A stretch of DNA of 61,341 bases, the filler included. It is 12 parts of 12 records of this genome, joined end to end, with 100 filler letters (N's around TTAATTAATTAA, not from the genome) between each part and the next. Parts side by side here need not be neighbours in the genome. Positions count along the whole stretch, not along the records: positions 1 to 3,186 come from SRR7504441_1485; 11 more parts are not named here. One strand, written 5' to 3'. Under the pieces are notes generated by a model. It did no database searches. It was not told the origin of the DNA and saw only the letters and a list, made by a program, of their open reading frames with translations. Positions 343 through 3,031 of this stretch are shown piece by piece. How positions within the stretch are numbered: the first letter of the stretch is position 1; the number at the start of each line of letters is the position of its first letter. Made by a program: the position numbers and the translations under genes.

Positions 343-3031
343 TCAAGCGTTGGCCGAGATCTCGGAGATTTGGTTGGTGATATCGTCCATCAGCTGCTCG
401 AACTTGGCCTCGAGCTCCGGCTGCAGCGAGGTGCCGGTCTGCTTGTCCTTAGGCATATAAAATTTCATCGAGGTGATCCCTGCGCCAACGGTGAGAAAAT
501 CATAAATAAATGATGAATACGGTGGATAAGTTGACCCTCGCCGCCCAGCTCGGCCTTGATCAAACTCCAACTGACTTTATGCTCATCCGACTGATGCTCG
601 ACCGCCTCCAAGCACCTGTCATCAGTTGCAGTTAGAAATGCTGTTGAGCTAGTGGACTTTTCGTAGAAATGGACGATGACTTTGAGCATCCAGACTGACT
701 TGTAGAACGGGCAGTTGCAATCGTAGTCGGTGAAGGCGTTCTGCTGCAGGAAATCGTCCTTGATAATTTTGGCCACCTGGCAATCCAAACCACACCAAGC
801 ATTAACACACACAATCAGCGCGCGCCAGAGCCAGGATGATGTGTAGAGAGAGAGCCGGAGGGCAGTCAGAGAGTGCACAGTCGTCACGGAATGATCAGCA
901 TTACGTCCCGTGTGTATCATCGTCCCCCCGCCCCGCGCGTATCACAGCCAATGGTTATTACTGCTCAGTCAACACACACCTCGAGCGTGATCTTGTCCGG
1001 CTCAGAGAGCGAGTCCTTCCCAACCAGCTGCACGATCTCGTTCAGCTCGTCCTCAGTCTGCAGGATCTCGCGGCACCTGTCAGTTGGCTTCTGTTAGAAC
1101 CATTAAACCAGTGTTTACACAACAATCATAATAATAATAATCACTTGGTGTGCGCGTGCATGAATCCGGAGTCAAATTCGTCCCAGAAGCCTTCGAGCGC
1201 CCGCTTGTACTTTGAGTACGATGTCAGCCAGTTGACACTCGGGAAATGCTTCCGTTGAGCCAGCTTCTTATCAAGCCCCCAGAACACTTGCACAATCGCC
1301 AGCGTCGCTGCAGTCACCGGCTCGGCCATGTCGCCTCCTGGCGGCGACACCGCCCCCACAATCGTAACCGACCCGGTCCGATTGGGCGACCCGCAGCACC
1401 GGACCTGTCCGTTGGATTCAGTTGGAGTATATTCATAGCACACAGCCGCACCTTGCCTGCGCGCTCGTAGAACGAAGCCAGCCGGGCGGCCAGGTAGGCC
1501 GGGTATCCGGAGTCAGCCGGCATCTCGGCCAGGCGGCCGGAGATCTCACGGAGAGCCTCGGCCCAGCGGGAGGTGGAGTCGGCCATCATGGCCACGTTCA
1601 TGCCCATGTCGCGGTAGTATTCGGCCATCGTGATCCCGGTGTAGATGGAAGCCTCGCGCGCGGCCACGGGCATATTGGAGGTGTTGGCCACCACACAGGT
1701 CCGGTTCATGATTGCGGCCTCGGTGCCTGGACCCGATTATCATTATTATTCTCATTACCCTTCTTATTATTACCGTCCGGCAACGACATCATGAGGTCAG
1801 GAAATTCCATGAGCACCTGCCGCGGGCTCAACAGACTCCAACGGACTCGTACGGACACCTCGGCCATCTCATTACCGCGCTCGCCGCACCCGACGTAGAT
1901 GATCGCGTCCGAGTTCGAATACTTGGAAAGCGACTGAGAAATAACCGTCTTACCGCACCCGAACGCCCCGGGAACCGCGCAGGTGCCGCCCTGCCGGCGG
2001 CTCAACCGAATCTCCAACAGACAAGCTGCCTGGACGGACGGGAACACGGCGTCGAGCACTCGCTGCCCGGTGAGGAGAGGCGTGTCGGCGACCAGTTTGT
2101 CGGCCACCGGCCGTGGCTTGCGGACCGACCAGATCTGTCGGTTGGTGTGCGCCAAAGGATGCCAAAGGAAACCTGGAGCATCGAGAATTCCTTTTTCTGG
2201 CCCATCGGCGTCTCGATCTCAATCACTTTGTCCTGCCGACGGCCTCAGCCCAACGGAGATCCAACCGACACCTCCAGCGTGTAGTTGCCCGGCTCAGCTA
2301 TGTAGGTGATCTGGCCGCCCTCGTCCGGCGGGAGCATCACCTGTCGGTTGGCTCAACGGAATTTCAACCGGCGCGGTCGACCTGGTGCTGGACCACAATC
2401 GACTCCGGCACCGTCGCGTAGACGTCGCCCTGCGTGATGTGCGAGCCAACTGAAAATCCCTGGGCCGGCGAGAAGGCCCACTGCTTCTGCTTGTTGAGTG
2501 CCGGCACGTTTATGCCGCGCGGGATGAAGATCGAGTTGCCCGAGGCGTCGGCGATCGACTCGAGCGGCCGTTGGATCCCGTCGAAGATGTTGTCCATGAT
2601 CCCTGCCCGGGCCTAGCGGACAGGTCAACGAAATCTAACGGACCTGGCCCGAGCTCGACTGAGAGCGAGGTGCCGGTCCGGACGACCGGGTCGCCCACGG
2701 TCAGCCCGGAGGTCTCCTCGTACACCTGCAGGCGGCTCAACAGACGCCAACGGAAAGGGCGGCGGCCTGGATAGTGGCGCTCTCGCCTTCAAGCTTGATG
2801 ATCTCGCCCACGAGCTTGATGTTCCCCACCCGCACCTGCGGCCAGCTAACGGAAAGTCCCCCCGGGGTGGCCCCGACCACTTCGTACATGGCAGCCCCGA
2901 GCATGTTGCCGGCGATGACCACTGGCGGCACAGTCAGCCCAACGGACGTCAACGGACGGCGCACCGGGCCCGGCCACCTTGGACACCGAGCCGATCTGGC
3001 TCTCGGGCGTCTCGTCCTGGTCTCCAAACAT
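343..3031 (-). CDS. ATP6V1A: V-type H+-ATPase catalytic subunit A, about 15 introns
   Basis: Spliced pieces give [15 protein letters not shown], Walker [61 protein letters not shown] and [15 protein letters not shown] at 3031, TGA at 343-345. Confidence 0.97.

Follow-up and report, generated by a model that had tools for sequence, protein, structure and literature searches.

Why should the first nine introns of one housekeeping gene, none longer than 43 nt, repeat the same short word, in most cases twice, and is that word read in the RNA or on the DNA? The question arises in a stretch of 61,341 nt (the window), in which 12 contigs of 3–9 kb from an uncultured marine eukaryote are joined and on which all counts and statistics given here rest; its first contig (positions 1–3186) carries a complete gene for the catalytic subunit A of the V-ATPase. 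Introns 1–9 of this gene are genuine spliceosomal introns of one sequence family, whose members share the octamer TCNGTTGR, usually as two direct copies one helical turn apart.

Excision of 15 introns yields an uninterrupted V-ATPase A frame of 623–624 amino acids, and the spliced translation is colinear with metatranscriptome proteins of 88–90% (about 89%) identity; identity is at most 72% to the next protein group and ~66% to the closest named protein among those compared. The homologues belong to the Pfam families PF16886, PF02874, PF00006 and PF22919. Parts of contig 1 are matched in marine metatranscriptomes of 11 studies, and RNA contigs assembled from four runs of three studies provide exact joints across 13 of the 15 introns (introns 2–6 and 8–15). 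Removal of intron 7 is implied arithmetically: record 6 of run X2 has 127 letters between the pieces ending at 2134 and starting at 2380, which equals 245 nt minus introns 5, 6 and 7. Intron 1 is supported by protein colinearity, its joint not being among the RNA rows listed. This RNA check covered contig 1, and the 21 introns collected outside the V-ATPase gene are predictions. Locating introns from the coding score of their flanks proved too noisy (3950 candidates and 59 clusters) and was followed by curation by eye and a branch-point filter; the introns of two further genes, one on contig 6 and one with ankyrin repeats on contig 10, were taken from reading frames. The nine introns labelled 'o', which were selected by the branch-point filter, are left out of the branch-point frequencies below.

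With its 15 introns, the V-ATPase gene is exceptional in a window where most other genes are long unbroken frames. Introns 1–9 are G+C-rich (55–74%), compared with 32–55% for introns 10–15 (Mann-Whitney p = 0.002), which are 41–203 nt long. Introns 3 and 8 are of the GC-AG type, as are five of the 36 introns collected in the window overall; in eight more of the 36, donor position +3 is C or T, and the donor consensus barely extends beyond GT. The GC-AG share is far higher than the 0.3–2% quoted for plants and animals and fits the 14–17% quoted for GC-rich pelagophytes in the same source (10.1101/2024.10.30.620910), without identifying the organism. Apart from that of intron 7, the donors of introns 1–9 read, in order, GTGCGC, GTCGGG, GCCGCC, GTCCGT, GTCGAC, GTGTCG, GCAGCT and GTGTCC.

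When the copies of the repeated word are aligned, TCNGTTGR is the conserved form: of the 18 sense copies, 16 have a T before the hexamer and 17 a purine after it. A same-strand pair 8–14 nt apart is present in eight of the introns 1–9, with an actual spacing of 10–12 nt, whereas 20,000 composition-preserving shuffles gave no intron with a pair in 19,040 cases, one in 937 and two in 23. All eight hexamer pairs that a preliminary description of this DNA had listed are present as written there, and so are the single copy of intron 2, the inverted pair of intron 11 and the pair at 3059–3073 upstream of the gene. The same description had seen no such pairs in the introns of other genes; their rarity is borne out but their absence is not, since a sense pair occurs in 2 of 27 other introns (six from the same gene and 21 predicted elsewhere; Fisher p = 1.3e-5 against 8 of 9). 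By the stricter pattern CNGTTR, pairs 10–12 nt apart occur in 9 of the 15 V-ATPase introns and in 1 of 21 others, and, as had been claimed, they run in both orientations: sense in introns 1, 3, 5, 6, 8 and 9, antisense in introns 11, 12 and 14. Within introns 1–9, sense copies prevail by 17 to 2 (binomial p = 0.0007).

The enrichment is local. The most enriched k-mers of the 15 introns are TCCGTT (8 occurrences, 0.14 expected) and CCGTTG (7, 0.29 expected), and TCNGTTGR matches the window 37 times where 12.7 matches are expected. Contig 1, which makes up 5% of the window, holds 20 of the 37 (11 sense and 5 antisense in introns, 3 in exons and 1 upstream), an approximately 30-fold enrichment at the locus on both strands (14 and 6 matches, against ~0.3 expected per strand). 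The V-ATPase exons show no enrichment of the word, with k-mers at background, and non-coding DNA outside contig 1 is barely enriched (1.42 vs 0.99 matches per kb).

The copies also stand at defined distances from the 3' splice site. A YTRA tetramer, mostly CTGA, with its A 9–13 nt before the 3' junction is found in 17 of the 27 introns that had not passed through the branch-point filter (7 of 15 in the V-ATPase gene, 7 of 9 in the contig-6 gene and 3 of 3 in the ankyrin-repeat gene), and YTRA at 10–13 nt is, to judge by sequence, the branch-point-like signature of the local introns. In introns 3, 5, 8 and 9 the second octamer supplies this motif with its TTGA, and in intron 2 the lone copy does so with its GTTA; in introns 1 and 6 a CTGA comes 6 nt after the second copy. 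The distance from the downstream copy to the 3' junction is quantized, at 11–13 nt in five of the nine introns, 18 nt in three and 23 nt in one. A YTRAY-like sequence at the usual branch-point distance is thus provided by the downstream copy in introns 2, 3, 5, 8 and 9 (A at 11–12 nt) and by none of the upstream copies. The upstream octamer keeps its spacing of 10–12 nt at any distance from the donor (2–14 nt).

Orientation is segregated along the gene: the nine GC-rich front introns carry sense copies, the AT-rich rear introns antisense ones, and introns 5 and 7 both. The antisense pairs of introns 11 and 12 lie at the same positions, 5 and 15 from the 3' end. In introns 5, 7, 11 and 12 the inverted octamer abuts the acceptor, as CCAACNGA directly followed by CAG, and ends 3 nt before the junction in all four; YAAC is followed by NG in 9 of its 10 occurrences in the V-ATPase introns. 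Intron ends can be mirrored in that a sense octamer stands 1–3 nt after the donor GT in introns 4, 6 and 7, of which intron 7 also ends in octamer-CAG. The preliminary description had held that strictly sense copies, all equally far from the 3' splice site in most introns, would speak for a branch-point variant. What we find agrees with this in part: the distances of the downstream copies fall into the three classes given above, and the inverted copies keep one of their own. Intron 13 starts with a 19-nt stretch (GT, GTTGA, CTGAG, CAG) that resembles a whole intron tail and may represent a nested or alternative acceptor.

Similarity among the introns reaches beyond the octamers. The mean pairwise local score of introns 1–9 is 9.89, against 6.17 +/- 0.23 in shuffles, and that of the other introns 6.34 against 5.8. 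A repeat finder returned direct matches between introns 3 and 9 (28/32, covering the 3' part of intron 9), among introns 9, 8 and 3 (83% over 23 nt) and between the tails of introns 5 and 12 (15/16). Inverted matches connect intron 11 with introns 9 (22/28 complementary), 4 (73% over 30 nt) and 3 (81% over 21 nt), and a further extended one among the introns measures 14/17 (I16). Direct and inverted matches alike continue past the octamers, into the first exon bases. The introns nevertheless differ from introners, which resemble one another over their whole length: sharing is limited to the octamers, some of the spacer and the 3' tail. The preliminary description had named membership of the introns in one dispersed introner family as something that would speak against its reading; the introns do form one sequence family, related directly and by inversion.

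Some DNA-level copying between introns, in both orientations, is likely to lie behind these matches; reverse splicing cannot invert a sequence, and the presence of inverted copies thus points to copying of DNA rather than to reverse splicing. The defined octamer positions are ~95% conserved, but most spacers and 5' segments (1–14 nt) of introns 1–9 cannot be aligned, which argues against neutral decay of copies; by this contrast, the octamers appear to be under constraint or to arise repeatedly. Intron positions were further compared with eight unrelated, intron-bearing V-ATPase A genomic loci from metagenomes. Intron 2 coincides in codon and phase with an intron of locus L033 (between MYE-V/L and VRVG, phase 0) and intron 4 with one of locus L017 (between SVELGP and G, phase 1). 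Because these positions are common to unrelated eukaryotes, introns 2 and 4 are probably old, and they are also the least typical members of the family, with one copy and with looser copies, respectively. The other seven positions of introns 1–9 have no match in the eight comparison loci, which are too few to call these introns new. The metagenome scan yielded 35 V-ATPase A loci, which are transcripts or belong to other lineages, and none of them is genomic from the sister clade of ~89% identity. Ten gut metagenome loci (L016, L018–L025 and L029) belong to another eukaryote, with 31-nt V-ATPase A introns ending in TAG; an intron at codon 66, phase 1, is present in all ten and also in L017, and one at codon 125, phase 2, in nine of the ten (not in L016).

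Copies of the word also lie outside the 15 introns. The cluster upstream of the V-ATPase start codon could be a promoter or 5' untranslated region (5'UTR) element, or else a 5'UTR intron of the same build; RNA covers no part of 2997–3186. In the sister species, the doubled word is partly echoed by GTTGAGTTG, which lies in the 57-nt 5'UTR of a V-ATPase A transcript (L001, 1–57), ahead of the ATG. Outside contig 1 there are three CCGTTR clusters (at least 3 within 35 nt) where 0.02 are expected, and those upstream of the alpha-galactosidase gene and of the contig-9 genes share only the six-base core, without the T and R flanks. Both CCGTTG of the contig-9 cluster (40688–40712, plus strand) belong to a 14-nt tandem duplication, and with a GTCGG 20 nt upstream they could also make up a 40-nt intron ending in TAG. 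The third of these clusters is coding: a CCGTTR-dense segment at 25491–26099 was rejected as a regulatory cluster, being made up of CAACGG (Gln-Arg) codons of a repetitive frame. This frame of 434 codons (24802–26103, minus strand) matches no Pfam family; Arg and Trp are abundant in it, Leu-Gln-Arg recurs, and its CAACGG codons mimic a cluster. The contig-6 gene (23056–24600, plus strand) is the second intron-rich gene of the window, with nine predicted introns of 39–58 nt that are mostly AT-rich and have YTRA 11–13 nt before the acceptor; the octamer pair is confined to the first of them.

Table. Positions of the V-ATPase A gene, its introns and other sites carrying the repeated word, counted along the window.
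Feature	Position	Strand	Length (nt)	Description
V-ATPase catalytic subunit A gene	346..3031	-		16 exons, 15 introns; complete; ATG near 3031
Intron 1	2922..2964	-	43	two sense octamers 10 nt apart, then CTGAC; A 12 nt before 3' junction
Intron 2	2836..2877	-	42	single copy CCGTTA; A 11 nt before 3' junction; codon 38, phase 0
Intron 3	2726..2766	-	41	GC-AG; sense pair 10 nt apart; second copy TTGAG, A 11 nt before junction
Intron 4	2603..2643	-	41	two looser copies, positions 3 and 13; codon 88, phase 1
Intron 5	2341..2381	-	41	two sense copies with 11-nt spacing; second copy TTGAG, A 12 nt before junction; inverted copy abuts 3' CAG
Intron 6	2233..2271	-	39	sense pair 11 nt apart from position 5, then CTGAG; A 12 nt before junction
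Intron 7	2135..2172	-	38	two CCTTTG variants 10 nt apart, positions 5 and 15; inverted copy abuts 3' CAG; mirrored ends
Intron 8	1991..2029	-	39	GC-AG; sense pair 12 nt apart; second copy TTGAG, A 11 nt before junction
Intron 9	1817..1858	-	42	sense pair 10 nt apart; second copy TTGAG, A 11 nt before junction
Intron 10	1727..1773	-	47	32% G+C; no copy of the word
Intron 11	1405..1451	-	47	inverted pair 10 nt apart; last copy ends 3 nt before junction
Intron 12	1077..1144	-	68	AT-rich; two inverted copies with 10-nt spacing, placed as in intron 11
Intron 13	777..979	-	203	no full copy of the word
Intron 14	616..657	-	42	CNGTTR hexamer three times, all inverted; spacings 12 and 6 nt
Intron 15	480..520	-	41	one sense CCGTTG ending 6 nt before junction
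Cluster upstream of V-ATPase ATG	3059..3084	-		two sense copies 9 nt apart and one inverted hexamer; 28–53 nt upstream
Cluster upstream of alpha-galactosidase gene	9058..9083	+		three sense CCGTTR, 9 and 11 nt apart; 84–109 nt upstream of ATG (9167); no convincing intron around
Predicted intron, contig-6 gene	23183..23221	+	39	two CGGTTG 11 nt apart from position 4
Cluster, contig 9	40688..40719	+		two CCGTTG 14 nt apart and inverted CCGTTA; in ~200-nt gap between two divergent genes
Predicted intron, ankyrin-repeat gene	46453..46490	+	38	looser version of the pair

From these observations we infer, with a probability that we would put at about 0.4, a splicing-integrated repeat module that has spread within the V-ATPase A gene. 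The module would comprise ~20–30 nt, with two direct TCNGTTGR copies one helical turn (10–12 nt) apart, and would serve intron recognition at the level of the pre-mRNA. Donors of the tiny introns are very weak (GTG, GTC, even GC), a pyrimidine tract is lacking, and a YTRA stands 10–13 nt before the 3' junction; in these introns, the downstream octamer would either be the branch site (TTGA-G, GTTA-G) or directly precede a CTGA branch site, and the branch-site machinery (SF1/U2 or a partner protein) might use the upstream octamer as an auxiliary or back-up place to dock. The flipped word of the AT-rich rear introns, YCAACNGA, would again be branch-site-like (YAAC) and fused to the 3' splice site. 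Copying between introns of the one gene would have taken place at the DNA level, in both orientations, and the module would have been kept because 40-nt GC-rich introns stay spliceable with it. We rank this RNA-level reading first because of the fixed offsets, the overlap with the branch site, the sense bias and the segregated orientation.

Several observations weigh against a module read during splicing. The upstream copy ends in G in six of eight introns and so cannot be the branch point itself. Weak donors are commoner in module-bearing introns (6 of 10 vs 7 of 26), but not significantly so (p = 0.12, or 0.10 without the filtered set), and other predicted GC-rich tiny introns of the window lack the module, which thus is not a general requirement for splicing. 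The same pair recurs with the same 10-nt spacing, inverted, in introns 11 and 12, and a single-stranded RNA motif does not predict inverted pairs unless two different words are involved. Two of the three CCGTTR clusters outside contig 1 precede start codons with no convincing intron around them, and the free and fixed positions of the word equal those of the Myb consensus CNGTTR.

The last of these points leads to a reading at the level of DNA. Known Myb sites (c-Myb YAACKG, plant type I CNGTTR and the MSA element YCYAACGG) act in promoters and enhancers, in either orientation and at no fixed distance from splice sites. A DNA-binding protein, of the Myb type or another, might recognise the octamers as paired sites that share a face of the helix, with ~24 putative sites in introns and 3 upstream; tiny introns would be the only free space in a conserved gene, the whole would act like intron-mediated enhancement or as an intragenic regulatory array, and the overlap with splice signals would be economy rather than cause. 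We regard this as unlikely, yet as an alternative with real substance. The enrichment of the word on both strands at the locus, the excess of strict pairs in the V-ATPase introns in both orientations, the retention of the 10-nt spacing in inverted pairs and the non-intronic clusters upstream of the V-ATPase, alpha-galactosidase and contig-9 genes are all what it would predict. Sense pairs lie within ~1.2 kb of the start, comparable with the range of intron-mediated enhancement given for Arabidopsis (10.1101/269852), and no RNA structure accounts for the words. CNGTTR, with its N and R positions, fits 24 of 27 loosely matched intronic hexamers (15 of 18 sense, 9 of 9 antisense), whereas YAACKG, the consensus cited in the preliminary description, fits only 9 of 17 sense hexamers. 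The inference drawn there, of a DNA-level rather than a splice signal, is supported in part: it is favoured by the concentration at one locus and the upstream CCGTTR clusters and disfavoured by the fixed splice-site offsets and the 17:2 sense bias. A factor site free of orientation would likewise not predict sense copies in front introns and antisense copies in rear ones: the words here lack the independence of orientation and distance that marks Myb sites. Nor do the exons and the non-coding DNA of other contigs show the enrichment, and the upstream clusters of other genes do not extend to the T and R flanks. Somewhat more doubtful still is the specific proposal that the 40-nt introns carry an array of ~24 Myb-type CNGTTR sites, in pairs one helical turn apart, that double as splice signals. 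The further part of that proposal strikes us as just as questionable: the sites of the nine front introns would face downstream and those of the rear introns upstream, converging mid-gene, and the same word would mark the gene's own upstream region and promoters of other genes.

Other explanations have less in their favour. U12-type introns have the donor RTATCCTT and the branch site TCCTTRAY, and intron 7 starts with GTTTCCTTT, one base off that donor; the other eight donors of introns 1–9 are unlike RTATCCTT, and we rejected this class. An RNA hairpin joining the splice sites would be compatible with the CGGTTG of intron 5, which can pair with CAACCG, but was rejected as well: among 14 introns folded, none is more stable than its shuffles (z -1.0 to +1.8). 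An Rfam search of contig 1 found no family, its sole match scoring 16.8 bits against a threshold of 100. Chance or composition is at odds with the shuffles, which never reached the observed counts, and all three of these explanations together are highly improbable. History alone is a better candidate, although still an improbable one. Here the module would be the remnant of a very short duplicative DNA element, either a miniature introner or miniature inverted-repeat transposable element (MITE) with octamer ends or filler from double-strand-break repair copied from neighbouring introns; by either route introns would have arisen or been reshaped, whichever way the copies pointed, and the octamers would now have no function beyond a usable branch site. 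The direct and inverted similarity that runs on into the first exon bases fits such an origin, as do the mirrored ends (GTN-octamer at the 5' end of introns 4, 6 and 7, octamer-CAG at the 3' end of introns 5, 7, 11 and 12), direct repeats of 3–5 nt that span the two junctions, the two look-alike introns in other genes and the clusters in upstream DNA. Same-gene duplicated introns and introner-like elements are described in fungi (PMC3609843), and introner screens by BLAST, for which a threshold of E <= 1e-5 on the intron plus 20 nt is stated, would in our judgement miss families of 40 nt (PMC9860276). However, introns 2 and 4 occupy positions that are probably old, the contrast between conserved octamers and unalignable spacers would not result from neutral decay, and a distribution in which one gene has at least nine copies and the remaining 58 kb only ~4 is unlike that of a dispersed element. 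Terminal repeats and target duplications, moreover, are not distinguishable here from splice consensus, and 38–43 nt is far below reported introner lengths, such as the mean of 67 nt for Micromonas IE-C (PMC3879977).

The contigs of the window are joined by identical linkers (44 N, TTAATTAATTAA, 44 N), the first at 3187–3286 and others at 8881, 12872, 19571, 22956, 26115, 30593, 39844, 45999, 52228 and 56419; these are artificial, and genes that flank a linker are therefore not genomic neighbours. As to the source, no Mamiellophyceae occur among the named V-ATPase A matches, and for a cryptochrome-DASH encoded on another contig the best named matches are from green algae (53–56% identity). A short CCCTAA-like run (TAACCCTAACTCTAACTCTAAC) is present at 180–215 on the minus strand, downstream of the V-ATPase gene.

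Look-alike intron families offer the main view of the origin of new introns, and a family of 38–43 nt concentrated in one housekeeping gene, with a module of 20–30 nt that also occurs inverted, would add a new case of intron gain or remodelling. It shows, too, how an organism might mark introns that lack a pyrimidine tract and whose donors have hardly any consensus. The double word may be read on DNA as well; if it were, the array would amount to a protist form of intron-mediated enhancement or to a polar intragenic barrier, written into tiny introns. It would then be a rare case of splice signals and protein-binding sites on the same bases, and would give a selective reason for introns in a compact genome.

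What we describe is a sequence-related intron family, unusual in that its members are so small, are concentrated in one gene, include partial and inverted copies and carry a double word; several known systems share some of these features. Compared with Myb sites, the free and fixed positions of the word coincide and copies are clustered in both orientations; in contrast to them, the copies here, as putative sites, lie in introns at fixed offsets and with segregated orientation. Introners (in Micromonas the classes IE-A to IE-D) and introner-like elements are also look-alike spliceosomal introns that carry their own branch site, those of the Micromonas class IE-C having a mean length of 67 nt and a conserved branch motif, GACTGACG, while other classes are longer (PMC3879977). 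As described there and for fungi (PMC3609843), such elements are longer than the present introns, similar over their full length and dispersed over many genes; here, within the 61 kb compared, 38–43-nt introns concentrated in one gene, not in hundreds, share a 20–30-nt module, with inverted copies and two probably old positions. Closer in distribution are the same-gene duplicated introns (SGD class) of Collemare et al. (2013), which are near-identical, restricted to one gene and of ordinary length and folding energy; half of them are ascribed to intron transposition within the transcript and half come with duplicated exons, with at most 16 members per species (PMC3609843). Unlike these, the present family comprises 8–12 introns of one gene between unique conserved coding exons, with partial sharing and some inverted copies.

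The inverted copies at the acceptor recall Trichomonas and Giardia, where the branch motif is fused to the 3' splice site as ACTAACACACAG (PMC13548475). In introns 5, 7, 11 and 12 the corresponding sequence, CCAACNGACAG, likewise runs up to the junction and consists of YAAC, two bases and ACAG, its second A preceding the junction by 7 nt; the likeness is one of sequence layout and concerns 4 of 15 introns of one gene, while most introns of the window use YTRA at 10–13 nt. The Arabidopsis motif TTNGATYTG, which mediates enhancement independently of splicing within ~1 kb of the transcription start (10.1101/269852), is likewise a short motif repeated in promoter-proximal introns, there of well-expressed genes, and the sense pairs here span the first ~1.2 kb; the word, however, is a different one, and here it is tied to the branch-site position. 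Lastly, the BOC1 introns of Mamiellophyceae, small and AT-rich, crowd particular genes of a GC-rich genome that is otherwise poor in introns, and introns 10–15 and those of the contig-6 gene look like them. In the account of BOC1 cited, these introns are presented without a branch motif or shared sequence (PMC3879977), whereas introns 1–9 of the V-ATPase A gene are GC-rich and share a word.

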